The notes below the pieces were generated by a model. The model had not been told where the DNA came from. It did not search any database and was given only the letters and a program-made list of their open reading frames with translations. The position numbers and the translations under genes are program-made. Shown one piece after another: positions 536 to 20,000 of a DNA stretch of 20,000 nt. Positions within the stretch are counted from its first letter, which is position 1, and each line of letters begins with the position of its first letter. Origin of the DNA: an uncultured virus (IMG/VR IMGVR_UViG_3300001765_000045) (Duplodnaviria; Heunggongvirae; Uroviricota; Caudoviricetes); the IMG/VR virus record IMGVR_UViG_3300001765_000045, one strand, 5' to 3'.

Positions 536-539
536 CTAC

Positions 540-574: not shown

Positions 575-1702
575 TTAAATATCTATTATACTAAATATTT
601 TTAACGTCCATTTATCTAGTATAAGTGCATATACTTCAATATATCCAGTCGCATCCTTAAAATTATAAGCACCTACTGCAATAATATCACCTGAACTATT
701 AATACCTGTTGAATTACCAAAACGCACATATTCATTTTCACCTATTAATGTATTACCATATTGTGCCCAGTCATCTAATTCATATTTAAATATTGACACA
801 TAACCAGATTGGGTATAAGCATTATCTGCACCTATTATAACAATGTCACCAGTAGAATTAATATCTACTGATATACCAAAATTTTCTTTATTAAAATTAC
901 CTTCTAATTTAGTACCTATTTGTGTCCAAACATCTGAAATATATTTATATATTACTGCATAGCCTCTATAATTATTAGCACCATATGCTCCTATAACTAT
1001 AATATCGCCTGAACTATTTATAGATACTGACCGACCGAAATGTTCATTCTCAGATTCTCCTAATAATGTAACACCTTGTTGAACCCATTTATTATTTATA
1101 CACTTTAATACTTTAACATAACCTTTATAATTATCAGCGGCATAAGCCCCTATTATAACAGTATCACCTTTACTATTAATATCTACTGAATGACCAAAAT
1201 AATCATTGATAGATTCACTTATTATGATATTTCCTTGTAATACCCAATCGATTTTTTTAAATTTATATACTTTAGTAAAACCTGATTTACTATCTAAACC
1301 TATTACAACTGTATCACCTATACTATTAATAGCTAAAGTAGAAGAAAAAAATTTTCGGGTAGATTCACTTAATATTGTACTACCTTGTTGAACCCAATTT
1401 TTTAACATATATTTATAAATCTTGACATAACTGGTATTATCATTAATAGAACATGCTCCTATAGCTATAATATTACCTGGACCATTAATGGATACTGATA
1501 TACCAAACTTATCTCCCCATTTTTCACCTATTAATGTATCACCATACTGTTTCCATAGACCTGATATAAATTTATAAACTTTAGCATACCCTGTATAATT
1601 ATAATCTCCATAAGCCCCTATTATAACAGTGTCACCTTTACTATTAATATCTATTGAATAACCAAAATATTCGTGTGCTGAAATTCCTGTCATTAAATTC
1701 AA
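575..1702 (-). CDS. FG-GAP repeat seven-bladed beta-propeller protein (copy 1, no MNMGYSNWS leader)
   Basis: Seven ~53-aa repeats FGxSVxINxxGDxvxIGA...GYVKxYK...W. TTG start with AAGGAG (1714-1709) 6 nt upstream. Confidence 0.85.
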   Translation of the reverse strand: MNLMTGISAHEYFGYSIDINSKGDTVIIGAYGDYNYTGYAKVYKFISGLWKQYGDTLIGEKWGDKFGISVSINGPGNIIAIGACSINDNTSYVKIYKYMLKNWVQQGSTILSESTRKFFSSTLAINSIGDTVVIGLDSKSGFTKVYKFKKIDWVLQGNIIISESINDYFGHSVDINSKGDTVIIGAYAADNYKGYVKVLKCINNKWVQQGVTLLGESENEHFGRSVSINSSGDIIVIGAYGANNYRGYAVIYKYISDVWTQIGTKLEGNFNKENFGISVDINSTGDIVIIGADNAYTQSGYVSIFKYELDDWAQYGNTLIGENEYVRFGNSTGINSSGDIIAVGAYNFKDATGYIEVYALILDKWTLKIFSIIDI

Positions 1703-3162: not shown

Positions 3163-3173
3163 ATTTTATCCTT

Positions 3174-3214: not shown

Positions 3215-3226
3215 ATAATTTATCTA

Positions 3227-3625: not shown

Positions 3626-3636
3626 AATTAATTCTC

Positions 3637-4077: not shown

Positions 4078-4079
4078 TT

Positions 4080-5142: not shown

Positions 5143-5564
5143 TGCATAACTCCTTCAAAAACCCACAAACTGTTACCAACTACGGTTAATTTAATAATTC
5201 TACTACCATTAGTCCGATTACGTCCTAAACTAATATAAGGATCATTAACTAAAATATTATATGTTTTAAGTTTGTAATATAAAGTATTTATAAAAGTTTC
5301 TCCTAAAATATCTTTATAGATACTATCAAATAAATCATTATCTATAAAATTACTTTGTATTCTAGAACCGTTAAAGTTTAAATTGTACTTACTGACATTA
5401 GCAAATGACATGTGAATACAATAATCGAAGAGTGTGTTAATATCATTACGACTTAGTATATATCCAGAAATTAGATATTCAATAGTATTTTCAAAATAAT
5501 CTACTAGATCTCTGATATCTAAAATATGAATCTTGTAATCACGTTCTACGTATGTTTTAGCCAC
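5139..5564 (-). CDS. Hypothetical protein
   Basis: 141-aa ORF with GTG start and AGGAG RBS; first gene after a terminator. Confidence 0.7.
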   Translation of the reverse strand: MAKTYVERDYKIHILDIRDLVDYFENTIEYLISGYILSRNDINTLFDYCIHMSFANVSKYNLNFNGSRIQSNFIDNDLFDSIYKDILGETFINTLYYKLKTYNILVNDPYISLGRNRTNGSRIIKLTVVGNSLWVFEGVMQ

Positions 5565-5600
5565 AGAAATCTCCTATCCCATGTAATATGTCCAGATAAG

Positions 5601-5645
5601 AAAAAAATACCGCTAGAAGCCCATTAGAAGGGCTTCTAGCGGTAT
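5601..5645 (-). terminator. Intrinsic terminator of phuZ
   Basis: 16-bp stem ATACCGCTAGAAGCCC(5607-5622)/GGGCTTCTAGCGGTAT(5630-5645) plus an A-run starting at 5601 (U-tract on the minus strand). Confidence 0.85.
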
Positions 5646-5659
5646 CCATACCTTTTATA

Positions 5660-6643
5660 CTAAAGGATCAAACCTTCATCAGTTGAATCATGCTGTTCTT
5701 TACCGATGATAGATTTTTCGATTACAACTTGACGAGCTTCTTTAAATTGTTCAAGTTTAACATCTAGTTCAGCTGCTTTAATATTGAAATATCCACCAAT
5801 AACACCGGCATGGATAGGCAATTGAACATGGAGTACTTCTTTATTCTCATCCATGATATAACCTACACATTGATATTCAACAGGAATATCTAGTTCTGGA
5901 CTATTATCATCATCACACAAAGTAGCCACAGTAATCAATGAAGTACCTTTTTCAAGAGTGATAGTTTTACTCCAGAAATCTAAATAGTTTAATTTAGACT
6001 GGAAATCAGTTACTCTATGATAATTGATAAAGTTATTTAGATCAGCTTTATCTAGTTCTCTATTTTGACCACTGAATAATACAGCTAACAACATAATAAG
6101 TGTTGTAACTTCATTATCAACTTTACCACGTGGAGTGATTTTACTATTTTCTTTATAACAAGCTACAACTGGATGGTCACATTTCTTAGAAATGTTCTCA
6201 TAAGATTTTAATGTCTTTAGAGTATTTTCTACTTCAATACGACTAGCATTGCTACCTACTATCACAGGAATAACAAGATCACCGCGTTTAACTAGTTCTG
6301 ATACTAGAATAGGACCAATAACGCTTCCGCTACCACCAGATGCACTATGTAGTACAATGTTAACTGTCGATGGTTTATATTGATGAAGAATGTCTTTAAC
6401 ACTCTCACTTAATGCACCATAATTTTGATCACGTTTCTTACCACTACCATCTATACCTTCTAGGATATATAATTTATCTTCATTAATAGTCTTTTTACCT
6501 ATCATATTACTACGACTGGTATCTATATAACAGATATCCATGTCAGCGTAACCTTTATTACTTTTACCTTCATATTGTCCAAATCCACTAGCGATGTTTA
6601 CACCAAATCCACCGCAGGCATAGATTCTTAATTTATCAGTCAT
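5660..6643 (-). CDS. phuZ: Phage tubulin PhuZ/TubZ (tubulin/FtsZ-family GTPase)
   Basis: YACGGFGVNI (T1 loop), IDTS, DGSGKKR, SASGGSGS (tubulin signature), ELDKADL (T7 loop), acidic tail ending DEGLIL. Start moved to ATG 6643 because of the AGGAG RBS; 327 aa. Confidence 0.9.
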   Translation of the reverse strand: MTDKLRIYACGGFGVNIASGFGQYEGKSNKGYADMDICYIDTSRSNMIGKKTINEDKLYILEGIDGSGKKRDQNYGALSESVKDILHQYKPSTVNIVLHSASGGSGSVIGPILVSELVKRGDLVIPVIVGSNASRIEVENTLKTLKSYENISKKCDHPVVACYKENSKITPRGKVDNEVTTLIMLLAVLFSGQNRELDKADLNNFINYHRVTDFQSKLNYLDFWSKTITLEKGTSLITVATLCDDDNSPELDIPVEYQCVGYIMDENKEVLHVQLPIHAGVIGGYFNIKAAELDVKLEQFKEARQVVIEKSIIGKEQHDSTDEGLIL

Positions 6644-6711
6644 TATACTACTCCTATATGTAACCCAAGTTTTAACTGTACTACCAAATGGAAAACCGCG
6701 ACTCATGAAAA

Positions 6712-7209
6712 TTATGTACTACGAAAAATAGCATAATCCCTAAATTTCTTTATTTTGTTGATATATGTATTATCTTTAATACCTCTATAACAAAAAATAG
6801 ATTTTTCAAGATCTCCTTTATGTTTACGAACACAATCACTATATATACCTATTCCTACTCTGATATTATCATCTAAATCTAAAGGTGTTTTTTTAAATTT
6901 ATTCCTATGGTATCTTATATTTACTTGCATGATACCTTGTGAATATTTACCTGGTCCTATAGCTTTACTATTTAAATTACTTTCAATTACCCCTAATGCT
7001 AAAATAGTATTAGGATTAATATCAGTAAATGAACTATAATGACTAATAAGTTCTGTTATTTCACGTATATCCGTATTTTTGTTTTTACATATTTTGTTAC
7101 AGAGATTTTCAGCTTTATCATAATCAATAACATATGATCCAGCTTGGACTGTATTAATTAATAAAAAGATAGATATTACAAATATACTAAATAAACTGTT
7201 GCGCATCAT
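6712..7209 (-). CDS. SLT-domain lytic transglycosylase with N-terminal signal peptide
   Basis: Catalytic IESN, SQGIMQV, NIRVG..Y, and FCY in place of AYN. Hydrophobic N-terminus ending VQA. Confidence 0.8.
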   Translation of the reverse strand: MMRNSLFSIFVISIFLLINTVQAGSYVIDYDKAENLCNKICKNKNTDIREITELISHYSSFTDINPNTILALGVIESNLNSKAIGPGKYSQGIMQVNIRYHRNKFKKTPLDLDDNIRVGIGIYSDCVRKHKGDLEKSIFCYRGIKDNTYINKIKKFRDYAIFRST

Positions 7210-7364
7210 TTAAAAAATCCTTTAAAAAATTTGAATTTACAGAAGAACGGTTAGTGTGATTTTAAATACCTCTATTAAAAAAGTTGAACTAGTTATTTCC
7301 ATATATAATATATATCACTTTTATATAAATAGAAAAGGTCTCATTATATACAAAGGTTTTTATT

Positions 7365-7423
7365 AAAAAAAACTATAACATCTTGAATTACCCCATCCTT
7401 TTATAGGACGAAGTAATTCAAGA
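7365..7423 (-). terminator. Probable terminator after FG-GAP copy 2
   Basis: TCTTGAATTAC(7381-7391)/GTAATTCAAGA(7413-7423) with an inner G-U-containing stem on the minus strand; A-run at about 7365-7372. Confidence 0.6.
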
Positions 7424-7440
7424 CAAATACATGTTAATGA

Positions 7441-8598
7441 TTAAGTATAGACTTTAACATAACCTGTAGAGCTATTAGCATATGATGCTCCTATAGCTAT
7501 AGTTATACCTGTGCTATTAATTGATACTGAAGAACCAAACCTATCACCAGTATTTTCACCTGTTAATTTAGCGCCTTGTAAAGTCCATGAATCAGATGCA
7601 AATTTATAGATTTTAACATATCCTTTATAATTATCAGCTCTATTTGCTCCTATAGCTACAATATCACCTGTACCACTAATAGATACTGAGCAACCAAATT
7701 TATCATAAGAAACTTCACCTATTAATTTAGCACCTTGTAGAGTCCATGTATTAGATATATTTTTATAAACTTTAGCATACCCTGTAGAGCTATTAGAATC
7801 AGATGCTCCTATAGCTACAATATCACCTATACTATTTAAAGATACTGCTGTACCAAAGTATTCACTACTAACTTCACCATTTATTCTACTTCCCTGTAGA
7901 GTCCATGTACCGGATATATTTTTATATATTTTAACATATCCTTTAAAACTCGCACCATAAACTGCTCCTATAGCTACAGTATCACCTACGCTATTAATAG
8001 ATATTGCAATACCAAAATAATCATTAGCAGCTTCGCCGTCTATTCTAGTTCCTTGTAGAGTCCATGCACCAGATATAAGTTTATATACTTTAACATACCC
8101 TTTATAACTATTAGCATATGCTGCTCCTATGGCTATAATATCACCTGGACCATTAATAGATACTGAGATACCAAAGAAATTACCAGTACCTTCACCTAAT
8201 ATTTTAGCACCTTGTAAAGTCCATATACCAGATATAAGTTTATAGACTTTAGCATACCCTGTAGAGCTATTAGCGGCATATGCTCCTATAATTACAGTAT
8301 CACCTGCACTATTAATAGATATTGAACCACCAAAGCTTTGACTAATAGCTTCACCATCTATTTTAGACCCCTGTAAAGTCCATATATTAGCCACATTTTT
8401 ATAAACTTTAACATATCCTACACCACTTGATGATGATATAGCTACAGTATCACCTACACTATTTAAAGATACTGCAGTACCAAAATACTCATCAATAGTC
8501 CCACCTGTTAATTTTACTTGTTCTACTCCAGATATACCATCACTAGCTTTAGTAGTAAAAACATTTATATCACTCCAATTGCTATAACCCATGTTCAT
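7441..8598 (-). CDS. FG-GAP seven-bladed beta-propeller protein (copy 2, MNMGYSNWS leader)
   Basis: Seven FG-GAP repeats after the leader MNMGYSNWSDINVFTTK; ends at a repeat boundary (YVKVYT*). Confidence 0.85.
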   Translation of the reverse strand: MNMGYSNWSDINVFTTKASDGISGVEQVKLTGGTIDEYFGTAVSLNSVGDTVAISSSSGVGYVKVYKNVANIWTLQGSKIDGEAISQSFGGSISINSAGDTVIIGAYAANSSTGYAKVYKLISGIWTLQGAKILGEGTGNFFGISVSINGPGDIIAIGAAYANSYKGYVKVYKLISGAWTLQGTRIDGEAANDYFGIAISINSVGDTVAIGAVYGASFKGYVKIYKNISGTWTLQGSRINGEVSSEYFGTAVSLNSIGDIVAIGASDSNSSTGYAKVYKNISNTWTLQGAKLIGEVSYDKFGCSVSISGTGDIVAIGANRADNYKGYVKIYKFASDSWTLQGAKLTGENTGDRFGSSVSINSTGITIAIGASYANSSTGYVKVYT

Positions 8599-8602
8599 TC
8601 CT
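8572..8602 (-). repeat. 31-bp invariant cassette leader, copy A
   Basis: AGGAATGAACATGGGTTATAGCAATTGGAGT on the minus strand; identical to 11745-11775 and 19782-19812. Confidence 0.95.
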
Positions 8603-9470
8603 TTACAGTTTAGAAATTATTAAAGATATTATAATTTTACCTATACCTTCTTATACCTATATAAGAAATCTTTTGTTCTAGGGTATTTAGAGATTGTTAT
8701 AAAGGTATATATAACAAATGGACTATTACCCAGAAAAAAATCGGTATCAGACGCTTGAACAGCTTATTGGTATTAGACGATCTAAAAAGTAACTTATCTA
8801 ATAAAGTAATAATATATAAATAATTTAAATGGTTTCTATTACTTTCTATAGGAAACTTTAAAATGGTAACTAAAGTTTCCTATAGAACATTTTAAATAAC
8901 TAATGGAAACTTAGATAACTAATTAATTAAATTAAAAATATTTATACCAGTATATATACCTATACATGTTATTTTTTACATATACTAACTTATAAGCATT
9001 TTTGTTCTAATATCTATAACTTTATAAAAATATCTAATTAATTTTAGTATATATATTCTGTATATACAGAATATATATACTCTAACTAATGTTCTTAAAA
9101 AACCATGTCGTCTGTATCGTTTGTTTTCTATAGCCTTCCTATAGAAACCATTTAAATTATTTTTTTAGAGTTTTCTTTTATAAGGTACATATGTAACCTA
9201 TGTAAAAAAATACCATATGTAACCTAGCTGGCTATAATAGTATATTCTATGTATATACTTCGTATATACTATAGAATATAGTATATACGATTTCCCCCCT
9301 TTCCCCCGTAGGTCCCTTTCCCCCCTTTCAAAGACGGTGAGTGTAACCCATTTAATATGTATTATGGGAAGAAAAAAATACGTAAACTATAAAAACGCAA
9401 TAGAATCTAGTATTTTCATATATACAGATTGTATATTATTATATAGTAATCTCAATGACTTGGTAACAAT
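8603..9470. other. Divergent strand-switch intergenic region with palindromes; candidate replication origin/control region
   Basis: 22-bp inverted repeat 8818-8839/9141-9162; 17-bp stem 8844-8887; 36-bp palindrome 9046-9081; direct repeat CATATGTAACCTA at 9188-9200 and 9214-9226; hairpin 9241-9280; C-tracts 9294-9325. Confidence 0.45.
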
Positions 9471-9486
9471 TATAGGAGTAGTTAAA

Positions 9487-9984
9487 ATGGGTGTTTTTAA
9501 TATAGTAGAAATGACTAAAGAACAAAATCAAATAGAACCTGATACTAAAATACCGGAAAAGATAATAGAGACAACTAAAGTAAATGAAACAGAGAATATC
9601 ATTAAAAATAAAGAAGATAAACTTATTACTTTAAATGGTAATCTAAGTCAAATCTATACTGACGCATTAAATCAAATGTATGCTATTGAAAATATGGGAA
9701 GTATGTTTAATATTATAAATAGTGTTTCTGATCAAAAAGAAACTTCTGATGATTTATATGTACATATAGTTGACAGTGATGATTTAGAAAATATAGACCC
9801 TATTAAAATAGTTAGAAATCTTAGATTAGCTTTAGATAAACGTACTGAAACTACTAAATTATTAGTTTTAGAAAGTAATAATTTAACAGCTAAAATCATA
9901 GGCGATTATTTTAACATAAGAGGTATTAAATCTATATATAACAGAGATAGCGCTTTACAGACTATTCGTAATTACTTAAGTTAA
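9487..9984 (+). CDS. Hypothetical protein (possible virion protein)
   Basis: ATG 9487 (MGVFNIVE) follows AGGAG, so it is preferred over the GTG at 9337; 165 aa. Confidence 0.7.
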   Translation: MGVFNIVEMTKEQNQIEPDTKIPEKIIETTKVNETENIIKNKEDKLITLNGNLSQIYTDALNQMYAIENMGSMFNIINSVSDQKETSDDLYVHIVDSDDLENIDPIKIVRNLRLALDKRTETTKLLVLESNNLTAKIIGDYFNIRGIKSIYNRDSALQTIRNYLS

Positions 9985-9998
9985 ACTGGAGTTTATAA

Positions 9999-11201
9999 AT
10001 GTATACTTTAGGCGGTGTGTTTGACAAATACTTTGAACATCTAAAGTTTAACAAAGAACTAGCTGCAAAAATATACCATTTTCAGTTAAAATATCTAAAT
10101 AGTGATAGAGAATATTTAGAATTCTACGGAAGTAATTTATTAGGTGTTCATAGATTAAGGTTTAAGGTAAGTGATTATAATACTTTTATGTATGATATAT
10201 TAGAAGTTGATATAGAAGCCTTAGACAAAGATTTAGATCACGTGCCTAGTGTAGTTAAGATAAATAAAGTTACCAGTGATTTATTTAATTTAAGTTGTGT
10301 ATACTTAATACATAGGTTTATGGGTAGTAATGAATTAAATGATAAAGATAAACAAAGAGTTTGTTATGATATAGCTAGTTTATTTATCATGAGATGTTTT
10401 GCTGCTTATATTAGTGCTTATTTTACATATCCTGCTGAAGAACGTATAGTTAAAATAGCTTATAGTAATTTAACTGGTAATAGCCTTATTAAGAAACTAG
10501 GTAACTGGTTTAAAGTAGTTGATTATAGAGCTAATGCCATGATAGATAAAAATGGTATACATTATAAAGCATTTAAAACACTTAATGAAGAAAAAGTAGC
10601 AATCATTATTAGTGATACTAAAGATAGAGTTAAAGATCATATTAAAAATTATTATAGTCAAATAGTTAAAGTTAAAAATAGTGGTGATATGCTTGGTACT
10701 ATAGGTAGTATGGCTATAGATGACGAAGGTGTTAATTCTTTAGTAGATAGAGTTAATAACATAGAAACTAAATCACTTAAGATAAAAAGTCTTATAGCTA
10801 GTGGTAACTTTAATAATACTGATTATATATATCTGGTATGCAGTATGAATAAAAATACAAATATTAAAAATATTGCTTCAGTGGTCAACTGGGTATCAGA
10901 TAATTATATGAAAAATAATGCTACTATCAATGAGTTTATAGATAAACTAACTGAATATACATATTATTTAATTAATAACAAAATAAGAGCTAGTGCTAGA
11001 AAAGATGTAAGTAAGCTACTAATAGAACTTAAATATTTATATGTTAGTAATAGAGTTGAAGATGATTTGATGGAAGAAGTAAGAGAATTAGCTGAGAATA
11101 TAGTTAAATTAAGTAGTAATAAATCTATGTATAAAGGTCTATTACTTTCTACAAGAACTACATTTATACTATATATAGCATTACTTATGATTATTAATTA
11201 A
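9999..11201 (+). CDS. Conserved phiKZ-like protein, putative virion structural protein
   Basis: 400-aa ORF with GGAG RBS. The FYGSNLLGVHRLRF motif resembles a conserved structural protein of phiKZ-like phages (from memory, unverified). Confidence 0.6.
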   Translation: MYTLGGVFDKYFEHLKFNKELAAKIYHFQLKYLNSDREYLEFYGSNLLGVHRLRFKVSDYNTFMYDILEVDIEALDKDLDHVPSVVKINKVTSDLFNLSCVYLIHRFMGSNELNDKDKQRVCYDIASLFIMRCFAAYISAYFTYPAEERIVKIAYSNLTGNSLIKKLGNWFKVVDYRANAMIDKNGIHYKAFKTLNEEKVAIIISDTKDRVKDHIKNYYSQIVKVKNSGDMLGTIGSMAIDDEGVNSLVDRVNNIETKSLKIKSLIASGNFNNTDYIYLVCSMNKNTNIKNIASVVNWVSDNYMKNNATINEFIDKLTEYTYYLINNKIRASARKDVSKLLIELKYLYVSNRVEDDLMEEVRELAENIVKLSSNKSMYKGLLLSTRTTFILYIALLMIIN

Positions 11202-11214
11202 AAACAATATGTAC

Positions 11215-11257
11215 CTGTACTAACCAGAACAATTTCTGGTTAGTACAGATATTTTTT
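11215..11257 (+). terminator. Intrinsic terminator
   Basis: 15-bp stem CTGTACTAACCAGAA(11215-11229)/TTCTGGTTAGTACAG(11234-11248) followed by ATATTTTTT. Confidence 0.8.
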
Positions 11258-11344
11258 GTTTGAATTAGTTGGTGCATTACTCTATTTTTTGAAAACTAGA
11301 TACTCTAGCGCTAAAGTAAACTATACGCACATGAGGAGAAACAA

Positions 11345-11722
11345 ATGCAGCGTTTTTTATTAAATATTATAATAACAATAATAGGTGTTAAGATATTTAG
11401 ATTCAATGGGAATAGAGATGATATTAGGATTATTAGAAACCATAAAGTAATGACAGTTAATAACCATGCTATTGTTTTTAACTTTTATGAGAAATTACAA
11501 TCTAATATTGTAGTGAGATTTTGTAGATTACAAAAATCCGTTTATAAATTTTATATAGTAGAAGCTACATTTTCAGACGCTTTTCCAGAAGATTTAAAGT
11601 TCTATAACAATAAGAAATATTATATAGATTTCAAAATGCATAACTGGTTTAATGATGAAGCTGTCTTAGATGTATTATTAGAAAAATTTATAAAATATTT
11701 AACTTTAACTAAAGTAGATTAG
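11345..11722 (+). CDS. Hypothetical protein with hydrophobic N-terminus
   Basis: 125 aa; GAGGAG RBS; FLLNIIITIIGV stretch. Confidence 0.65.
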   Translation: MQRFLLNIIITIIGVKIFRFNGNRDDIRIIRNHKVMTVNNHAIVFNFYEKLQSNIVVRFCRLQKSVYKFYIVEATFSDAFPEDLKFYNNKKYYIDFKMHNWFNDEAVLDVLLEKFIKYLTLTKVD

Positions 11723-11744
11723 TAAACCAATATTTTAAACATAG

Positions 11745-11775
11745 AGGAATGAACATGGGTTATAGCAATTGGAGT
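11745..11775 (+). repeat. 31-bp invariant cassette leader, copy B
   Basis: Identical to copies A and C; preceded by ATTTTAAACA, as is copy C. Confidence 0.95.
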
Positions 11776-12930
11776 ACAGGAAATTCTTTTACTACTAAAA
11801 CCACATATGGTATCAGTGGTTTAGAACAAGCGGTATTTCACGGTGAAAGTAACTATCAATTCCACGGTTGTTCAGTATCTATTAATGGAATAGGTGATAC
11901 TGTAGCTATAGGAGCATATGGTTGGGCAGCGAATTCAGGATATGTTAAAGTATATAAACTTATATCTGGTACATGGGGACAAATAGGTAATGGATTATAT
12001 GGTCAAACATGGGCTGGAACTAAATTTGGTTGGGCTGTATCAATTAATTCTACTGGTGATGTTATAGCTATAGGCGAGAAAAATATTGGTAGTGATACAG
12101 GGCGTGTTAATGTCTTTAAATACATATCAAATGCATGGATACGAGTAGGTGAAGCATATCAGATGCAAGGTGAAGCATATAGTGATTATTTTGGTTGCTC
12201 AGTATCTATAAATAATGCAGGCGATATTGTAGTTGTAGGAGCATCAAATGCTAATAGCTCTACAGGATATGTTAAAATCTATAAACTTGTATCTGATGTA
12301 TGGACTTTACAAGGCGCTAAATTAACAGGTGAAGCAAATGGTGGTGAATTTGGTTGCTCAGTATCCATTAATGGTCTTGGTGATATTATAGCTATAGGAG
12401 CATATAGAGCTAATAATGCTAAAGGATATGTTGAAATATATAAAAATATATCTGGCACATGGACTCTACAGGGTACTAGACTATCAGGTGAAGCAGTTAA
12501 TGATTATTTTGGTATAGCAGTATCTATTAATGATTTAGGTGATATTGTAGTTATAGGAGCATTTTATGCTAATAGTTATACAGGATATGTTAAGGTCTAT
12601 AAATTTATATCTGGCACATGGACTCAACAGGGTACTAGAATAGACGGTAATGCTGAGAATGCTTACTTTGGTCGATCTGTATCTATTAATGACGCAGGTG
12701 ATATTATAGCTATAGGAGCACCTAATTCTTATGATTATAGAGGATCTGTTAAAATCTATAAATTTGCATCTGATTCATGGGTTCAACAGGGTATTACAAT
12801 TATAGGTGCCCAATATGTAGGTAGTATAGATTTAGGCAATTCTGTTTCTTTAAATAGTGCAGGTGATACTATAGCTATAGGAGCACAGCAAAATAATGTT
12901 GCAACTGGATATGTTAAAATTTATAAGTAA
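11749..12930 (+). CDS. FG-GAP seven-bladed beta-propeller protein (copy 3, MNMGYSNWS leader)
   Basis: Seven FG-GAP repeats after MNMGYSNWSTGNSFTTK; ends YVKIYK*. Confidence 0.85.
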   Translation: MNMGYSNWSTGNSFTTKTTYGISGLEQAVFHGESNYQFHGCSVSINGIGDTVAIGAYGWAANSGYVKVYKLISGTWGQIGNGLYGQTWAGTKFGWAVSINSTGDVIAIGEKNIGSDTGRVNVFKYISNAWIRVGEAYQMQGEAYSDYFGCSVSINNAGDIVVVGASNANSSTGYVKIYKLVSDVWTLQGAKLTGEANGGEFGCSVSINGLGDIIAIGAYRANNAKGYVEIYKNISGTWTLQGTRLSGEAVNDYFGIAVSINDLGDIVVIGAFYANSYTGYVKVYKFISGTWTQQGTRIDGNAENAYFGRSVSINDAGDIIAIGAPNSYDYRGSVKIYKFASDSWVQQGITIIGAQYVGSIDLGNSVSLNSAGDTIAIGAQQNNVATGYVKIYK

Positions 12931-12952
12931 CTTTTAATTATAATATTTTCAA

Positions 12953-13004
12953 ATATACTATTGTAGGCCGTTATCTGGTCTACAATAGTATATAGTTCTT
13001 TTTT
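12953..13004 (+). terminator. Intrinsic terminator after FG-GAP copy 3
   Basis: ATATACTATTGTAGGCC(12953-12969)/GGTCTACAATAGTATAT(12977-12993), one G-U pair on the plus strand, then TTCTTTTTT. Confidence 0.75.
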
Positions 13005-13060
13005 CCAGAAATGTAGTGTAGGGATATTTAAACTTAAAAACAAAAATACATAGGAATCGT

Positions 13061-13618
13061 ATGTCTTTATACAAAATGAATATTATTAAAATAGTGGCAT
13101 TAGATCCAGGTTTAAATAACACAGGAGTATCTAGTATATTATTTGATTATAATTCTAGATCTATAGTAGGTATAGCAGCATATACTATTAAAACAGAAGA
13201 TCTTATAAAAAAACATTATATGACTAATTATTTAGATGATAGGACTATTAAACAATTAATGTTGAAAGAAAAATTTATAGAAACTGTAGAATTCTTTAAG
13301 CCTGATGTAGTTATTTCTGAAGCACCTTTTTTTTACTCTAGTAAACCAGTAGCCTTTAAAGCTTTAGTAGAAGTTATTAATCTATTTAAAATGGTTTTAG
13401 CTGAATCATATCCACAAACACCATTTGTACAATTAGAACCTCTAATGGTTAAAAAACATGTTAAATCTTTAAATATACATGATAAAGATAGTACTAAAGA
13501 AGCATTGGAAGTATTGGGTCTAAGTAAATATTTACTATTAAATACATTGGATGAACATGCTGTAGATGCTATATCTATAGGTTACGCTTTTTTAAAAAGT
13601 AGAGATTTATTGCTTTAA
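13061..13618 (+). CDS. ruvC: RuvC-like Holliday junction resolvase
   Basis: RNase H-fold catalytic motifs IVALDPGLNNTG, VISEAPF, PLMVKK and EHAVDAISIG. Confidence 0.85.
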   Translation: MSLYKMNIIKIVALDPGLNNTGVSSILFDYNSRSIVGIAAYTIKTEDLIKKHYMTNYLDDRTIKQLMLKEKFIETVEFFKPDVVISEAPFFYSSKPVAFKALVEVINLFKMVLAESYPQTPFVQLEPLMVKKHVKSLNIHDKDSTKEALEVLGLSKYLLLNTLDEHAVDAISIGYAFLKSRDLLL

Positions 13619-13684
13619 TATAACTTTTGTTATAACCTCTAGAAATATCTAGAGACCAAAACCCGTGTTAAAAAGGTACACATC

Positions 13685-14203
13685 ATGTCAGCATTATTAT
13701 ATTTTAAAGCAATTGACTTTTTTCGTAAATATGTAATATATATTATAGTAGCTTTATTAATTATAGCTAGTTTATTTATCATACCAAATATTTCTGCTAT
13801 ATCTGAAAAATTTGGTATTGAGACAAGGGCTTCATTAAAAGCTAAAGTAGCGGAACAAAATAAAACTATTGAATTAGCTATAGATGTAAATAAACAAAAT
13901 ACTGATACAATAGTTAGAGAAAAAGTGTCTAGTGATATAGTTGAAAAAGTTTTAGTAAATAAAAATAAAAAGGAAATAGTGTTATCAAAAATTATTACAG
14001 ATATAAAGAAAAAAAGAAAACATACTATAGATAAATTAGTAAAATCTGAGCGGGTTGATAATATAGTTAAAGTTTCTCCAACCGGAGAAAATGTTGTAAA
14101 TTATACAGATGAACAAGTCATAAAAATAGCTGAAACCAATATAGATGCAATATGGACAGCATATGAAACTGTCCAAAACCAAGGAGTAATAAAAAATGAT
14201 TAA
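13685..14203 (+). CDS. Inner-membrane spanin (Rz-like)
   Basis: N-terminal TM helix (YVIYIIVALLIIASLFII) then a coiled-coil-like region; its 3' end overlaps a lipoprotein gene. Confidence 0.7.
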   Translation: MSALLYFKAIDFFRKYVIYIIVALLIIASLFIIPNISAISEKFGIETRASLKAKVAEQNKTIELAIDVNKQNTDTIVREKVSSDIVEKVLVNKNKKEIVLSKIITDIKKKRKHTIDKLVKSERVDNIVKVSPTGENVVNYTDEQVIKIAETNIDAIWTAYETVQNQGVIKND

Positions 14204-14537
14204 CAAAAGATTTCTTATACTAGCTTTATTTTCCTCATTTGTTATAACTGGATGTTCTACAATACCAGAACCACAGGTTATAATTAAACATAAAACTACT
14301 TATAAATCAATACCCACTGATTTATTAGAACCTTGTTTTATTCCTAAACCTATGGAAAAAAAAGAATATTTAAAACTAAATTCTGTAGAAAGAGAAATTG
14401 CTCTTACTGACTATAGTATAGATCTTATAGTATATTTAGGTTTTTGTAATATCAAAATAAACTCTATCAAGGAATTTAATGTTAAACATATTAAGTTGTA
14501 CAGTGAACCTGTAGACAAGTTAATTATTGCTCCTTAA
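14196..14537 (+). CDS. Outer-membrane lipoprotein spanin (Rz1-like)
   Basis: Signal peptide with lipobox VITG-C, Pro-rich IPTDLLEPCFIPKP, second Cys in GFCN; 8-nt overlap with the i-spanin. Confidence 0.8.
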   Translation: MINKRFLILALFSSFVITGCSTIPEPQVIIKHKTTYKSIPTDLLEPCFIPKPMEKKEYLKLNSVEREIALTDYSIDLIVYLGFCNIKINSIKEFNVKHIKLYSEPVDKLIIAP

Positions 14538-14552
14538 AAATAAAAGGATTTT

Positions 14553-15440
14553 TTGATGGATACGGAAACTATAGATTTTGAATTATCTGAATATATAAAT
14601 AATAATTTCATTGAAGATAAAGCTATTCTGATTCATGACGCATTAAATCTCGTATATCTATTTAAAGAAGTAGATAGTGAACATGAATATGTTGATCTAT
14701 TAAATAGATATAGTAACACGGATAATAGCAATATACAAGATGAATTAATTATTAAACTCAATGATCAACTAGATATACTTATAGAAGCACATAAACTGTT
14801 TATAATACCAACTCATGACTTAAGAGTAAAGGTTCAGCTATTAAATGCTTTACAGCTTCTGATGCATCTAGAAGACTATAGTTATGTATTAATAGTACTA
14901 GAGACTGAATTAAGTGATATTGAAAAAATATCTAGAATAATTTCTGAATACTGTTTACTAAATGAACAAGATGTATTAGAACTAGTAACTACAGTAGATC
15001 CTATATTCATTAAACTATTGCAACAATATGCTTTATCTAAAGAAGGTGTAGTTATTTTAGAGCTAGATGAATCTAACCATATTGTTATAGAAAATTTAAA
15101 GTTATTAAAAAAAATATATAAAAAAGATGATTTAATAGGTATACAGTTACTTAAATCTAATATTAAACCCAATTTAGAAATAGGTTTATATCTAACCTTA
15201 TTAAACGATCAGTATGATTTCAATAATAAGAGTGATATAGAAGAATTGTCTTTAAATATATTCTCACTGTTACTATTGACTAGATCAAATCTAAACGGCA
15301 TTTTACATCTTTATAAAAAGAATAGCCATCTGCTACTTAATAATTCTAATACTATTTCTTTAGTAGAAGTTGGTGTCATGCAGTGTCTAAGTGAATTCTT
15401 AGATTATAAGAAAATGTTAATTGGGATAAAAAATGACTAA
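14553..15440 (+). CDS. Hypothetical protein coupled to the RNAP subunit (possible virion protein)
   Basis: 295-aa helical ORF with AAAGGA RBS and an 8-nt overlap with the next gene. Confidence 0.7.
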   Translation: MMDTETIDFELSEYINNNFIEDKAILIHDALNLVYLFKEVDSEHEYVDLLNRYSNTDNSNIQDELIIKLNDQLDILIEAHKLFIIPTHDLRVKVQLLNALQLLMHLEDYSYVLIVLETELSDIEKISRIISEYCLLNEQDVLELVTTVDPIFIKLLQQYALSKEGVVILELDESNHIVIENLKLLKKIYKKDDLIGIQLLKSNIKPNLEIGLYLTLLNDQYDFNNKSDIEELSLNIFSLLLLTRSNLNGILHLYKKNSHLLLNNSNTISLVEVGVMQCLSEFLDYKKMLIGIKND

Positions 15441-16728
15441 GTTAGAATATCTTAAACTATGTATACAGAATAAACAATATAATAAACTTAATTGGTTAAC
15501 ATCTATTTTTAGTATCATAAGCAGCATACCTAAGATACAACTCATTTATAATGATTTGTCTTATGAAGCTAATGGTTATAACTATATAGACCCAACTGGT
15601 TCCTTAGTACCTATATCTGATGCCATAGACAGACCTTTATTTAAAGTTAGTGATGAAATAACTATTGATAGTACATGGTTACCTTTTGTAACTGAACCTA
15701 TAGTAACCACAGTAGGTAGATTAATTACTAACGCTGTTTGTATATACGGTATTTTTAATAATAATTTACCTTATATAAATAATAAGTTTACTGTTACAAC
15801 AGTAGAAAAAATGATAGCTCCTTTAATGTTATCTGATCCTGATGATCTATCTACTAAAGATAAAGAAAAAATATATGTGTCTGATTATATAAGTTTCCTT
15901 AGTAGTATATATTATATAACCAACCTTTCTTCTATCATAGTTACATCAGCAACACCTAAGGTTATGACAAAACCTGAAGGTCTAGATAAATTTATGAATG
16001 AATTAATTATTAAGTATAAAGGTAAATTACATGATAGAGTTGAACTAATCAACTTTGAAAATGAACTTAGGAAGTTTGATGACGATTATCTAAAAGATGA
16101 AGCTAGTTATGGTTTATTTATATCAGGTAAGATAAAAGATACGGCTAGACATAAACTTTTCTTAACTATAGGATCTGGTTTAGATTTTACTGAAAAAACT
16201 AAATTAGAACCTATACTAACATCATTAGCACAAGGTTGGTCATTAGATCCTAACCAATTTAAAAATATGATGAATGATATTCGTTATGGATCATTCTCTC
16301 GTGGAGCTGAAACAGTTAAAGGCGGCGTTACTTTTAAAACACTTATACGATCTACTAACACTGTAACTATACTTGATGATGATTGTGGTACTACTTTAAC
16401 ATTACCAAGAGTTTTTGCTACTGGTGAAACAGATATGTTAGTAGATAGATATATAATTGTAGATAATAAACCTTTGCTTATAACAGATGTAAATATTGCT
16501 AAACAATATGCAGATAAATTAGTTCAATTACGTTCGCCTGTTTATTGTAAACTAGATAAAGATAATTTTTGTTCTATCTGCACAGGTAAAAAAATCTCAA
16601 ATAACAGAGATAGTTTGGCTATATTATTAACTGAAATATCATCTATCATTATTACAAGTGCATTAAAAATAATGCATGGCGCTGTACAAAGTACAGCTAA
16701 GATAGATCTTAATAAACATTTTAATTAG
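15433..16728 (+). CDS. rpoC: Split multisubunit RNA polymerase beta-prime C-terminal subunit (phiKZ gp80-like, probably virion RNAP)
   Basis: TTVGR, bridge-helix-like SFSRGAETVKGG, DDCGT, Zn-site RSPVYC..FCSICTG and trigger-loop-like ALKIMHG. No DFDGD, as expected for the C-terminal half. Confidence 0.85.
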   Translation: MTKLEYLKLCIQNKQYNKLNWLTSIFSIISSIPKIQLIYNDLSYEANGYNYIDPTGSLVPISDAIDRPLFKVSDEITIDSTWLPFVTEPIVTTVGRLITNAVCIYGIFNNNLPYINNKFTVTTVEKMIAPLMLSDPDDLSTKDKEKIYVSDYISFLSSIYYITNLSSIIVTSATPKVMTKPEGLDKFMNELIIKYKGKLHDRVELINFENELRKFDDDYLKDEASYGLFISGKIKDTARHKLFLTIGSGLDFTEKTKLEPILTSLAQGWSLDPNQFKNMMNDIRYGSFSRGAETVKGGVTFKTLIRSTNTVTILDDDCGTTLTLPRVFATGETDMLVDRYIIVDNKPLLITDVNIAKQYADKLVQLRSPVYCKLDKDNFCSICTGKKISNNRDSLAILLTEISSIIITSALKIMHGAVQSTAKIDLNKHFN

Positions 16729-16736
16729 GAATTCTT

Positions 16737-17426
16737 ATGGTTGAACTTGACGACTATTTTTCAGATGACCCAGAGATATTAAGTTCAACTAAATCATCTG
16801 ATGATAAACCTTATAAACAAAAGTATGGTCAAGGACAGAAAAAACCTTTCTATGAAAAGAAAGAAGTAGATTTAGAAACATTTACTTTATACAAACCTTA
16901 TACTATAGTAGGTAATTCAGGTGCTCCTCAATCTGTCTTAGATCAAACTAAAGAAATTATAGATATGTTAATAGATAATGGGTTTACTGCTAGAGTGACA
17001 TGTTCTTCTGATATGGACACTTATATAGAACAAGAATTACAAGGTTCGTTCTATGAACTTTATATACCTTGGAAAGACTTCAATAATAAACAGTCTAAAT
17101 TTTATTTTAATGATGCTTTATCTAAACATGTGGCTAAGATGTTCCATAGGACATTTGATTCCCTTAAACCAGCTGTACAAGCATTCTTAGCTAGGAATGT
17201 TAGAATGGTTTTAGGTGAAAAACTAAAAAGTTATAGTCTTTTTGTTTTAGTATGGTCAGAAGATGGTGTTGAACAAATCAACGACATAAGTTTTAAAACT
17301 GGTATGGTTTCACATGTTATTTCTGTAGCTAGAGCATTACATATTCCTGTTTTTAACTTACAACATACTAGTACTAAAGATAGATTAATTAAATATCTGC
17401 GTCTTAAACAACCAGTTAAGCAGTAA
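16737..17426 (+). CDS. SLOG/DprA-like protein (degenerate)
   Basis: YTIVGNS, ELYIPWKDFN, ARNVRMVLG..FVLVWSEDG and IPVFNL parallel the N-domain of 1819-3162. Confidence 0.7.
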   Translation: MVELDDYFSDDPEILSSTKSSDDKPYKQKYGQGQKKPFYEKKEVDLETFTLYKPYTIVGNSGAPQSVLDQTKEIIDMLIDNGFTARVTCSSDMDTYIEQELQGSFYELYIPWKDFNNKQSKFYFNDALSKHVAKMFHRTFDSLKPAVQAFLARNVRMVLGEKLKSYSLFVLVWSEDGVEQINDISFKTGMVSHVISVARALHIPVFNLQHTSTKDRLIKYLRLKQPVKQ

Positions 17427-17444
17427 AAAATAAGGGAATAGTAG

Positions 17445-18254
17445 ATGGCTAAGAGAAATCGTTTATATACCACACCCAACATGACATTACAGGAAGAAAC
17501 AGATATGGAAAAAACACAGAATGATAGCGTTCAAGAAAATGCTGTAACTGAAATAGTTAGTCAACCGGTTATTAAAGCACCAGTTCAACCAGTTGTTAAA
17601 GCACCAGTTCAACCGGTTATTAATGCAATAACTCAACCAGTTATTGAAATACCTGTTCAACAAGAAAAGGAAATTGTTCAACGGGAGAATACTCCTCCTG
17701 TAGATAAAATGGTAACTGAAATAGAACATGTTAAACAAATTAACCCTATTGCTAAACAAGCTCCTGTTCAAAGTAAAGTAGTAAGTAACACTAATGAATA
17801 TGATATTGTCATTAATTCAGCTTTAAACAGTGTAGATCAACAAACAGCATCCATTAATAGTTTTTTAGATAATTATGTTAAAAGTATGTCAGCCGGTATG
17901 CCTATCGATAGTAAAAAAGGCGGTACTAATCAGTTTAATTTATATAGTACTATTGTTCAAATTACCGGACAGGATAAGTACGATGACTTTAAACGCAACT
18001 TGGTTCTATTACTCGCATATATGCGGAAATATGAAACAACGTGTTTCTCTGAACGTTTGATTTTCCGTTTTGCTGAAGAGTGGCCCAGTAGTACTGACAA
18101 ATTAACCCATTTCCACGCTACTCTTAATTTATTTAAGATTATTGCTAATCCAAAAGAACGACCTGTTAATAAATACGTGAATTTAGAACGTACATTTAAC
18201 ACAGGTTTTAGTGAAATAGCTAAAGATAATATCACTAAATTTATAGAGCGTTAA
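17445..18254 (+). CDS. Hypothetical protein: low-complexity Pro/Val/Gln N-terminal linker plus globular C-domain
   Basis: 269-aa ORF with QPVxKAPV repeats; the true start may be a downstream ATG. Confidence 0.7.
   Translation: MAKRNRLYTTPNMTLQEETDMEKTQNDSVQENAVTEIVSQPVIKAPVQPVVKAPVQPVINAITQPVIEIPVQQEKEIVQRENTPPVDKMVTEIEHVKQINPIAKQAPVQSKVVSNTNEYDIVINSALNSVDQQTASINSFLDNYVKSMSAGMPIDSKKGGTNQFNLYSTIVQITGQDKYDDFKRNLVLLLAYMRKYETTCFSERLIFRFAEEWPSSTDKLTHFHATLNLFKIIANPKERPVNKYVNLERTFNTGFSEIAKDNITKFIER
17562..17621 (+). repeat. 24-bp in-frame tandem repeat (2.5 copies)
   Basis: CAACCGGTTATTAAAGCACCAGTT / CAACCAGTTGTTAAAGCACCAGTT / CAACCGGTTATT. Confidence 0.9.
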
Positions 18255-18272
18255 ACTTTATAAATATAGTGC

Positions 18273-18394
18273 TAATATAATGGGTGTATAAAACCCGTTA
18301 TAAAAATATACTTGTTATATAAATATATGAAAGACTTAATTTTTAATTTAATTATAGTTAATCATTGTTAATATAATGGGTGTATAAAACCCGT
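18273..18394 (+). promoter_or_regulatory. Duplicated 26-bp element (TATAAT plus small hairpin) upstream of 18435
   Basis: TAATATAATGGGTGTATAAAACCCGT at 18273-18298 and 18369-18394. Confidence 0.55.
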
Positions 18395-18434
18395 AGTAAC
18401 TTTTCTATTTTTCCTATTTGCAAAGAGGTGAAAC

Positions 18435-18998
18435 ATGGCTGTTCAAATGAAGGTTCATAAAGTTAATGCTCTTCCTGGTACCCTAGAGCCGTCGACCATG
18501 TATATGGTCAAGTCCGGCGTTACTGGACTGATGGACATTTACGTATCGTCTAATGATGGTACTGAAGCTCGTCATATCATTTCCCGTAGCGAAATTCAAG
18601 CTATGGTTAATGAATCTGTAGCCTCCACCAGCCACATTTATGTTGTTGCTGATATAGCTGCTCGTAACGCATTGGCTCCTGAAGTTGTTACCCAAGCACT
18701 TGTTATTGATGCTACCGGTGACACGTCTGTTATAGCTGGTGCAGCTACTTACGTTTTTGATCCTGCTCTAACCACTTGGACCAAGATCTCTGAACATGAA
18801 TCTATGGATGTTGTGCTCACATGGGCCAGTATCCAGAATCGTCCGAACTCTACCGTTGTTGAAATTGATGATGCAGTTGGTAAGCGTCACGTTCACGCTA
18901 ACTCTGTCCTATTGGACAAAGTCGGTGAAGATGCTAATGGCCTCATGACCTACAATGGCGCCAGCTTGCACGCTTACCTATCTAGCGATCAGTGGTAA
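18435..18998 (+). CDS. Putative virion structural protein, probably highly expressed
   Basis: GAGGTG RBS, distinct codon usage (CGT, ACC, GGC), own terminator. The VVADIAARNAL...VIDATGD..V..GAATY pattern recalls phage structural proteins (from memory). Confidence 0.6.
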   Translation: MAVQMKVHKVNALPGTLEPSTMYMVKSGVTGLMDIYVSSNDGTEARHIISRSEIQAMVNESVASTSHIYVVADIAARNALAPEVVTQALVIDATGDTSVIAGAATYVFDPALTTWTKISEHESMDVVLTWASIQNRPNSTVVEIDDAVGKRHVHANSVLLDKVGEDANGLMTYNGASLHAYLSSDQW

Positions 18999-19030
18999 TC
19001 TGAATTAAGCATTAATCGGGTCACTGAGAG

Positions 19031-19066
19031 AACCGCTAGAACCTTTATTGGTTCTAGCGGTTTTTT
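19031..19066 (+). terminator. Intrinsic terminator
   Basis: AACCGCTAGAACC(19031-19043)/GGTTCTAGCGGTT(19050-19062) running into a T-tract. Confidence 0.85.
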
Positions 19067-19253
19067 AATACCGTGAGTATATATTAAAAAACTAATTAAA
19101 TTCTAATGAATTGGTACAATCTAAAATACGATATATGTATTTAGTATTTTCAAGAATAGCTTATTAACTAAGGTATTCTAGTCACCATGTAACTTAACCT
19201 TTAAAGGACAGGAATTTATTTTTGTTTTAATATATAAAAATATAATTTCTGAG

Positions 19254-19667
19254 ATGACAATGGCTATAATAGGCGAAAAGCTAACAAAATTTCTTGTAAG
19301 TAAGTTTAATGAAGAATACCAAGCTACACATCAATTCACTGAGTTTATTTTAACACAAATCCCTCTTAATGAAGATCATCAATTCGCTTTTGAAGCTACA
19401 GCAAATTTATATAATGCAGTCATACGTTTCAGAGTTTATTTTAATATAAATCAAGCAACTTCATTATTAACATTTAAGTTAAATTCATTAGATGATATAA
19501 TTCCAACAGAAGATTATTGTTTTACTACTAAAGGAACTATAAGTGCAGATGTATTAACAGATAATGGTAATTATAAAGAAATAAAATTATATAGAGGGAC
19601 AGGACATATAGATCCTACTAATGTTTGTGTTAGCATTAGAATGATGTTAGGATTGGAAGAATGGTGA
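19254..19667 (+). CDS. Hypothetical protein
   Basis: 137-aa ORF with no recognisable motif and a weak RBS. Confidence 0.55.
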   Translation: MTMAIIGEKLTKFLVSKFNEEYQATHQFTEFILTQIPLNEDHQFAFEATANLYNAVIRFRVYFNINQATSLLTFKLNSLDDIIPTEDYCFTTKGTISADVLTDNGNYKEIKLYRGTGHIDPTNVCVSIRMMLGLEEW

Positions 19668-19681
19668 AAAAAACATAAAAA

Positions 19682-19719
19682 TACCATACAGTCCCTAGTT
19701 AACTAGGGACTGTATGGTA
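19682..19719. terminator. 38-bp perfect palindrome, probable terminator
   Basis: TACCATACAGTCCCTAGTT|AACTAGGGACTGTATGGTA. Confidence 0.6.
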
Positions 19720-19781
19720 CTTAACGAACATAAAAATAACTTTGATAGAATGGGTTAATAGTGTCTACATTTTAAACACAA

Positions 19782-19812
19782 AGGAATGAACATGGGTTAT
19801 AGCAATTGGAGT
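19782..19812 (+). repeat. 31-bp invariant cassette leader, copy C
   Basis: Identical to copies A and B. Confidence 0.95.
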
Positions 19813-20000
19813 AATACTAACACCTTCACTACTAAGACTAGCTATGTTATATCTAGTGAAGAAGCTAAATTAGTAGCTAGTGATAAAGCAGCTACTGATT
19901 ATTTTGGACACTCTGTAAGTATCAATGCAGATGGTACTAAAGTAGTTATAGGTGCATATCTTGCTGATCCTGATGGTACTAGTACTGCAGGTGCAGCTTA
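19786..20000 (+). CDS. FG-GAP repeat protein (copy 4, MNMGYSNWS leader), truncated by the window end
   Basis: Manual translation: MNMGYSNWSNTNTFTTKTSYVISSEEAKLVASDKAATDYFGHSVSINADGTKVVIGAYLADPDGTSTAGAA. Absent from the ORF track because there is no stop in the window. Confidence 0.85.
   Translation, partial: MNMGYSNWSNTNTFTTKTSYVISSEEAKLVASDKAATDYFGHSVSINADGTKVVIGAYLADPDGTSTAGAA

Follow-up and report, generated by a model that had tools for sequence, protein, structure and literature searches.

In chaperone-usher pili, an Ig-like domain that lacks its C-terminal G strand is completed by the N-terminal extension of another protein, which supplies this strand. Phage receptor-binding proteins of the anchor-branch type (KP32-type and CBA120-type) carry a short conserved N-terminal peptide or domain that docks additional tailspikes. 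In T-even fibre adhesin swapping, the R64 shufflon, the Mu G segment and the pilE/pilS system, a short conserved sequence marks the junction between a constant part and variable C-terminal binding modules. The locus analysed here is a 20,000-nt stretch of an uncultured Caudoviricetes virus (IMG/VR record IMGVR_UViG_3300001765_000045; the whole stretch is referred to as the window), in which three genes of FG-GAP propellers begin with an identical 31-bp leader. We propose, with a probability of roughly 60%, that these genes encode stand-alone tips which dock on a common fibre shaft by donor-strand complementation, the leader peptide being the donor strand and a truncated fibronectin type III (Fn3) domain of the shaft the acceptor. 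All evidence for this proposal is computational.

Leader and propeller genes of the window

The 31-mer AGGAATGAACATGGGTTATAGCAATTGGAGT occurs in the window in exactly three copies (Table 1), and none of 200 shuffles gave any match to it. In all three copies, it is followed by four variable codons and then by F-T-T-K; the leader peptide of the tip genes thus reads (MN)MGYSNWSxxxxFTTK and forms an N-terminal extension of 17-18 residues. Upstream of the leader, the in-frame translation gives ..FLNCKG, ..YFKHRG and ..HFKHKG in the three window copies, and stop codons are located 8, 14 and 10 codons before the second ATG, i.e. 6, 12 and 8 codons before the first one. Copies 1 and 2, both complete, match the FG-GAP_2 family with seven blade motifs each. 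The full-length propeller genes score 76.6-85.5 bits against the PF14312 cut-off of 23, which assigns them to the FG-GAP_2 propellers, and the blade subtype of copy 3 is different (..EEAKLVAS..). A first-pass annotation of the window had already described the three identical leaders, the two complete copies with exactly seven repeats and a hairpin behind them, and the remnants FKHRG, FKHKG and LNCKG with a stop 6-12 codons before the ATG, and all these observations were reproduced.

The AGGA motif stands at -11/-10 from the second ATG, and motifs resembling a Shine-Dalgarno sequence are comparably placed in 18 of the 23 open reading frames (ORFs) of the window. Since the first ATG is missing in the copy from L001, another contig of the same assembly, the second ATG (11755 in copy 2) is the likely start codon. 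The leader and initiation region is unstructured as RNA (z about 0), and the seven-blade frames are intact despite a dS of 0.3-0.5. Judging by the Shine-Dalgarno sequence, ATG, full frame and terminator, the tips are real genes. The propeller fold itself does not need the leader, as shown by the leaderless paralogue at 575-1702(-).

Fused relatives of the leader-bearing genes

A protein search with copy 2 retrieved stand-alone proteins that start with MGYSNWS (P0001, P0005, P0008, P0009 and P0017), as well as P0007 (624 aa) and P0019 (568 aa), both of them long and with the leader peptide in an internal position. In these two, a fibre anchor at the N-terminus and Ig/Fn3-like domains precede the sequence ..TTYYVRVKHKGTN-MGYSNWSNTNTFTTK... 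Only two candidates were scored when leader residues 1-40 were used in a word-index search. At the DNA level, a degenerate pattern detected 10 leader sites on five metagenome contigs: three are the window's own, six lie on three contigs of the same assembly (L001, L002 and L006) and one belongs to another project (L009). Two of the ten (L002 at 11294, and L009) are located inside long frames with upstream Fn3 sequence, and for the remaining eight, a stop codon lies 8-20 codons upstream. The long form of L002 carries the exact 31-mer in frame, and long Fn3 fibre genes with the leader in frame were also found elsewhere (P0007, P0019, P0246 and P0248-P0250). The long Fn3-containing gene with an internal motif, which the first-pass annotation had placed outside the window, was thus found both in the same assembly and beyond it.

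In the fused genes (L002/P0122, P0007, P0019 and L009), the leader residues come after ..TTYYVRVKHKG. The L006 protein P0121, a fibre of 1630 aa, combines an anchor with seven Ig+Fn3 units and a seven-blade propeller. All Fn3 repeats of P0121 and of the shaft protein P0125 (described below), except for the last one of P0125, end with YY.RV.YKG..GYS.WS....F. and then V/T. The Pfam profile fn3 (PF00041, cut-off 25) matches P0121 with 39.3 bits and P0123 with 35.5 bits, and its positions 39-83 of 84 cover the ..YY.RV.YK....S.WS....F.T stretch, placing these residues in the G strand. As the leader residues align to the end of the fn3 profile, the leader represents the FG loop and the G strand, i.e. 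the last strand, of a phage-fibre Fn3. The same residues in the fused genes agree with this assignment, which had also been suggested in the first-pass annotation.

Shaft proteins with a truncated last Fn3

The putative acceptor is P0125 (L006 5900-9844 on the minus strand, 1314 aa), encoded in the same assembly as the window and comprising an N-terminal domain/anchor and 11 Fn3 repeats about 107 residues apart. Its last Fn3 halts right after the F strand, ending with ...YYLRVRYKGSSSL and a stop codon, i.e. ..NTLYYLRVRYKGSSSL and stop (...RVRYKGSSSL), and the stretch absent from it is exactly the piece encoded by the leader. Since an inverted repeat and then the Shine-Dalgarno sequence and ATG of the next gene follow the stop codon, this is the true end of the gene. 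Relatives of this end were searched for with the last 215 residues. Among the 120 relatives listed, 14 end with ..[KN]GSS[SA]L (including P0127, the locus's own protein), and two end with ..GSDE directly after the F strand. Over these 215 residues, the 16 proteins share 45-69% identity; their lengths are 859-1728 aa, and the contigs that encode them reach 87 kb. The presence of the truncated end in 16 of the 120 listed relatives shows that the truncation is conserved and not accidental.

The end of the L002 protein P0124 (..RVRYKQLSYLRNMEL and stop) was considered as a second acceptor and rejected, because its Fn3 reading is resumed in a different frame by P0123, a protein with a complete Fn3 at its end. 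The end of P0124 is a frameshift or a collapse inside the repeat array. The whole region (L002 782-4870 on the minus strand) is a fibre gene of about 1300 aa with Fn3 repeats, split over two frames (P0124 and P0123). Two of its junctions skip a G strand and a linker, which may be due to repeat collapse in the assembly or to real recombination between repeats.

The recurrence of such pairs was scanned for in 65 IMG/VR loci with Fn3-repeat relatives and, in a relaxed form, over the whole record of G001, a distant 217-kb IMG/VR phage. The first motif scan of the 65 loci gave a single true acceptor-like end. In G001, one ORF (321 aa) ends with ..YFVRTRFNGRLAGGTPIQS and stop, and behind this acceptor ORF come a fused fibre gene (629 aa) and, next, the gene of a 2510-aa FG-GAP protein. 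The latter starts with ..LVASEWSDAVEFTVRP, i.e. with the G-strand motif without an F strand before it. A second G001 ORF ends with ..YYVRIQHFGKKP and stop. Thus, both halves, split acceptor and donor, seem to recur independently in G001 with different sequences. Fused forms or different C-terminal domains were all that G002 and the remaining IMG/VR relatives examined contained. A conserved Ig-like domain lacking its last strand, as is characteristic of the acceptor in donor-strand complementation, is therefore present in P0125, in 16 of its 120 listed relatives and in two ORFs of G001. The 2510-aa protein of G001 (L108 2861-10393) is made up almost completely of FG-GAP blades, the number of which would suffice for several consecutive propellers.

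Predicted complex of leader and shaft

Residues 1117-1314 of P0125 and copy 2, both as alignments, were used for complex prediction, together with three controls. The complex score was 0.71 (0.71, 0.70 and 0.71 in the runs) versus 0.00 for the best of the three controls; the mark applied to this score is reached by 116 of 157 solved complexes and by 2 of 215 mismatched pairs. At least 94% of the contacts were common to the runs, and the partner had a predicted local distance difference test score (pLDDT) of at least 89. In the predicted complex, the tip-side interface consists of residues 1-18 only, and the leader runs antiparallel along shaft residues 1296-1310 (F strand), touching residues 1223-1245. 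Folded alone with AlphaFold2, copy 2 is a confident propeller (pLDDT 87.7, predicted TM-score 0.89), the best Foldseek matches of which are integrin alpha propellers (E 7e-17). Its residues 1-18, folded alone, have a pLDDT below 50 and no secondary structure. The complex prediction supports binding of the leader to the shaft, without being a demonstration of it.

Constraint and recombination at the leader

Between the bodies of the leader-bearing propellers, the pairwise proportions of synonymous and nonsynonymous differences are 0.23-0.36 (pS) and 0.24-0.30 (pN), with dN/dS of 0.8-1.0, and 77-80% of identical residues are encoded by the same codon. For the leader, about one synonymous difference and about seven amino-acid changes per pair would be expected; none of either kind was observed among the three window copies. 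The lack of synonymous changes, emphasised in the first-pass annotation, is real within the window. It is, however, weak evidence, because this codon sameness and the low pS make it unremarkable, whereas the lack of amino-acid changes is striking. The invariance of the leader residues points to a constraint at the protein level, which would fit a docking peptide. A constraint on the nucleotide sequence of the 31-mer (as an RNA element or a recombination signal) was also considered and set aside, as the RNA is unstructured and synonymous changes do occur: TAT>TAC in two of the nine leader copies of the assembly, and many in the distant L009 copy.

Identity profiles anchored at the leader show abrupt and non-coincident breakpoints. 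The copies L001_441 and L002_10045 have 85 upstream nucleotides and the leader in common and differ in the propeller type; copy 3 and L002_10045 have a common body and different upstream flanks. Copy 3 and the long form of L002 are alike only from about -18 to +47, and copy 2 and the broken L006_10001 from about -24 to +41. The unit that begins at 19669 (intergenic region, leader and KLVAS body) recurs in L001 behind a different gene with 94% identity. The L009 homologue of the 125-aa gene preceding copy 2 is located directly upstream of the fused (long-form) fibre gene, which suggests that copy 2 occupies the place of a long form stripped of its N-terminal part. Given this position and the mosaic breakpoints, the leader has served as a recombination joint in evolution, where fused forms were turned into split ones and tips were shuffled.

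Two further observations concern these cassettes. The L006 copy (10001-11146 on the plus strand) is a broken leader-bearing cassette, in which 26 codons are followed by a stop and then by a 289-aa FG-GAP frame in a different phase. Over the leader and the 41 nt behind it, this cassette is identical to copy 2. In KLVAS-type propellers (window 19786-20000; L001 1-360 and 6586-7101; L002 9650-10051), the blades are more than 90% identical in DNA with a period of 174 nt, and contigs of the assembly end inside them. Because the summed contig depth in the last bin of the window is about 40 times that of the neighbouring bins, this subtype appears to be multi-copy or highly variable in the samples.

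Proposed mechanism and alternative explanations

According to the proposed mechanism, the three window genes would encode complete, separately expressed receptor-binding tips, and the N-terminal extension of a tip would insert into the last Fn3 of the shaft as its missing G strand. Several different tips could be mounted non-covalently on one type of shaft. The leader would also be the joint between fused and split forms, at which flanks and bodies are shuffled. The signs of this in the sequences are the complementarity of the two halves, the conservation of each of them, the mosaic junctions and the gene signals; from these we infer physical docking, the presence of the tips in the virion and a single genome for the shaft and the window tips. 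A fuller version, to which we give about even odds, is a plug-and-socket arrangement with one shaft socket, at least six different propeller tips genome-wide bearing the same plug, their mixed and exchangeable display, and a joint for transitions between fused and split forms in both directions. The first-pass annotation had named expression of each gene on its own from the second ATG, with docking by strand complementation, as its alternative. This is now the better supported of its two readings, owing to the shaft family without the strand and to the complex prediction, the docking itself being a predicted one.

Several points weigh against docking on this shaft. The AlphaFold2 model of the fused P0007 is of too low quality around the Fn3 (residues 145-255 have a pLDDT below 50) for a structural confirmation of the strand assignment. 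As the prediction completes a split Fn3, its high score may come from the model's familiarity with the Fn3 fold and not from binding. P0125 and the window are linked only by the assembly, the leader and an AT-rich composition. There are two leaderless propeller paralogues on the window's contig, one at 575-1702(-) and another just upstream of it, at 1-519(-) of L008, a contig whose positions 1454-20045 are 100% identical to window positions 1-18592. Finally, the gene after the truncated shaft is syntenic in L006 (4831-5826 on the minus strand, 331 aa) and in L066 of G001 (364 aa; 30% identity, E 4e-56), and this conserved downstream gene could be the real partner of the shaft.

The last two points would also suit ordinary paralogy, in which the window genes are 5'-truncated duplicates of a fused gene whose translation happens to begin at the first usable Met provided with an SD-like K-G codon pair, the leader is a vestigial initiation region that docks on no shaft and the shaft Fn3 binds something else. 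Under this explanation, the synonymous identity of the leader is what codon bias and low dS would produce, the conserved block takes in the Shine-Dalgarno sequence and the start codon, and copy 2 lies just where L009 has its fused gene. We nevertheless regard it as unlikely, since initiation does not need 15 invariant or nearly invariant residues reaching 45 nt into a gene, the rest of which evolves at dN/dS of about 0.9, and since the match between missing strand and leader is exact, recurs in G001 with different sequences and passes the complex prediction. The exchange of tip cassettes favoured by the first-pass annotation, i.e. that the dispersed genes are donors recombined or copied into the fused fibre gene at the leader, altering the host range within the population, appears distinctly improbable. 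The exact in-frame 31-mer within the fused fibre gene of L002, from the same assembly, the decayed F-strand remnants that the cassettes retain upstream, the mosaic junctions and the location of a cassette directly behind the fused gene in both L002 and L006 would all be explained by it, and as far as past recombination among paralogues is concerned, the annotation was right. A working switching system is another matter. Scans with Pfam and PHROG revealed no invertase, integrase, recombinase, diversity-generating retroelement (DGR) or reverse transcriptase in the window, the absence of a DGR and of a nearby invertase having been noted before. The cassettes have no common 3' anchor, as their terminators differ and a hairpin is common to four of the nine gene ends examined. 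Simple crossovers between copies located tens of kb apart amid essential genes would invert or delete these genes, and the conserved truncated shaft would be left unexplained. Lake-water runs contain this phage at about 99% identity; the Logan contigs of four sequencing runs break at the 31-mer (the pieces end at 8601, 11772/11764 and 19704/19711), their loose ends correspond to the known paralogous flank, and no informative alternative junction was found in them. The particular types of switching fare no better. Shufflons and invertible segments (Rci, Gin/Cin) require a recombinase, whereas the window copies lie 3-8 kb apart between unrelated genes, and no constant Fn3 part adjoins any of them. 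The copies differ at all base types and over the whole length, unlike the products of a DGR, and each of them has its own Shine-Dalgarno sequence, ATG and full frame, with terminators following, unlike a pilS-like silent cassette. Thus, dedicated or programmed cassette switching is unsupported.

It is also conceivable, at a very low probability, that each fused gene gives two products, a full fibre and a free tip, from an internal start at the Met before GYSNWS, and that the stand-alone genes mimic the short product. This Met is present, in the Fn3 preceding the propeller, in eight of the ten fused forms examined (P0007, P0019, L009 752-2071, L002 10125-11444, P0246, P0248, P0249 and P0250, and not in P0251 and P0121), its position is taken by V, A, G or N in most internal Fn3 repeats, and the K-G codons give AGGA at Shine-Dalgarno distance. 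On the other hand, one internal Fn3 of P0246 has Met as well, and the residue could be structural. Such a double expression would add to the docking model and does not compete with it.

Phage context and other features of the window

The window encodes a PhuZ tubulin, a split RNA polymerase (RNAP) beta subunit, a RuvC-like resolvase, an SLT lysozyme and a spanin-like protein (Pfam and PHROG). The best supported PHROG assignments concern PhuZ (1e-88) and the RNAP beta subunit (7e-111), and PhuZ is 33-42% identical to PhuZ of known nucleus-forming jumbo phages. The window thus belongs to a distant jumbo phage with PhuZ and a multisubunit RNAP; these two genes give it a chimallivirus-like context, no search having been aimed at chimallin. 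Among GenBank phages, no close relative was found at the DNA level, and a protein search with copy 2 gave one weak FG-GAP match only. In IMG/VR, the leader was absent in both exact and degenerate form, and neither the RNAP subunit nor copy 2 had a close relative there. Scanning the window for Rfam families and tRNAs gave no match.

Table 1. Leader copies, propeller genes and associated features of the window
Feature	Position	Strand	Evidence
Leaderless FG-GAP propeller paralogue	575..1702	-	own AAGGAG Shine-Dalgarno sequence
Terminator hairpin and T run, 3' of copy 1	7379..7425	-	z -6.9
Copy 1, stand-alone seven-blade FG-GAP propeller with leader	7441..8598	-	PF14312, blade motifs
31-mer of copy 1	8572..8602	-	exact match
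125-aa gene directly upstream of copy 2	11345..11722	+	L009 homologue, 31% identity, E 6e-21
31-mer of copy 2	11745..11775	+	K/R-G codons forming the Shine-Dalgarno sequence (AGGA), two ATGs, G-Y-S-N-W-S codons
Copy 2, stand-alone seven-blade FG-GAP propeller	11749..12930	+	PF14312; residues 1-18 correspond to the Fn3 G strand
Terminator hairpin and T run, 3' of copy 2	12953..12993	+	z -6.5
187-aa protein	18435..18998	+	N-terminal domain of the shaft family matched by residues 1-60 (..KVHKVNALPGTLE..), 33% identity, E 2e-8
Hairpin closing the gene before copy 3	19682..19719	+	fold prediction
31-mer of copy 3	19782..19812	+	exact match
Copy 3, leader-bearing propeller of the KLVAS subtype	19786..20000	+	cut by the window end and the contig end

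The 187-aa protein of Table 1 belongs to PHROG 7946 and has an additional weak tail-fibre match; it probably uses the same virion attachment site as the shaft family with the truncated Fn3. Downstream of the leaderless propeller, 480 nt (60-540 on the minus strand) contain no ORF of at least 60 aa and have a G+C content above that of the surroundings. Their predicted folding energy is -126 kcal/mol (z -5.1 versus shuffles), with no Rfam match even at E up to 1 and no tRNA, and they may represent a structured non-coding RNA or an intron-like element. The AT-rich gap of 730 bp between divergent genes at 8603-9336 is dense in short direct and inverted repeats, including TATATAC-type palindromes, TTCTATAGGAA pairs and a 27-nt inverted pair 300 nt apart, and is probably a promoter/regulatory region or an origin. 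Two separate genes of proteins with a DprA-like domain (PHROG 768) are located at 1819-3162(-) and 16737-17426(+); in the former, this domain is fused to DUF4326 and another conserved phage domain.

Comparison with known systems

In the literature searched, most subscription journals being outside its coverage, no phage fibre was described as using donor-strand complementation or a split-Fn3 connector, and no paper linking FG-GAP with jumbo phages was found; the papers on donor strands and phage tails dealt with sheath proteins or were reviews. If the proposed mechanism is true, one beta strand would suffice to attach binding modules exchangeably to a phage fibre, and a virus would use donor-strand complementation for host recognition. 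This would explain many dispersed paralogous binding proteins in jumbo phages without as many attachment sites, and would be a third route to the breadth of host range, besides recombination and DGRs. For the engineering of phage tips, the strand and its acceptor would also offer a small tag-and-socket pair of natural origin. For metagenomes, a sequence rule follows from this model: a fibre gene ending right after an Fn3 F strand, accompanied by genes that start with a G strand.

Dispersed paralogues, some of them with carbohydrate-binding domains, are also known for the DUF7941 'fibre cloud' of chimalliviruses, such as the nucleus-forming jumbo phage Goslar (10.64898/2026.04.21.720040). Their assembly was predicted to occur by docking of a disordered segment onto the globular domain of another protomer (10.64898/2026.04.21.720040). 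Unlike the proposed docking of the window tips, however, DUF7941 proteins, which belong to a different domain family, assemble head to tail into filaments and not by completion of an Fn3 strand (10.64898/2026.04.21.720040). No window protein matched DUF7941 in Pfam at E up to 0.01, the presence of this model in the Pfam copy used being unchecked.

The mosaic junctions at the short conserved leader resemble those of swapping systems such as the shufflon or pilE/pilS. The locus differs from these in having no site-specific recombinase and no invertible clusters, and in that the copies are complete, expressible genes rather than silent partial ones. As in the donor-strand complementation of chaperone-usher pili, the donor peptide of the window is predicted to be disordered alone and to pair edge to edge with the F strand of the acceptor. 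In this case, however, the partners would be a phage fibre and its tip, with no chaperone or usher involved, the acceptor would be the last of 11 Fn3 repeats, and the donor bears a propeller. No chaperone, usher or pilin was matched among the window ORFs scanned (15 with Pfam and 23 with PHROG), and the likeness is meant as an analogy of mechanism and function, with no homology claimed. Compared with the anchor-branch receptor-binding proteins, the adaptor would here be a single beta strand that completes a split Fn3, and the tips are monomer-like FG-GAP propellers, not trimeric beta-helix spikes. Common to both systems would be alternative binding proteins that have a conserved N-terminal adaptor and are held non-covalently by a common virion protein, the boundary of the adaptor acting as the joint for recombination.

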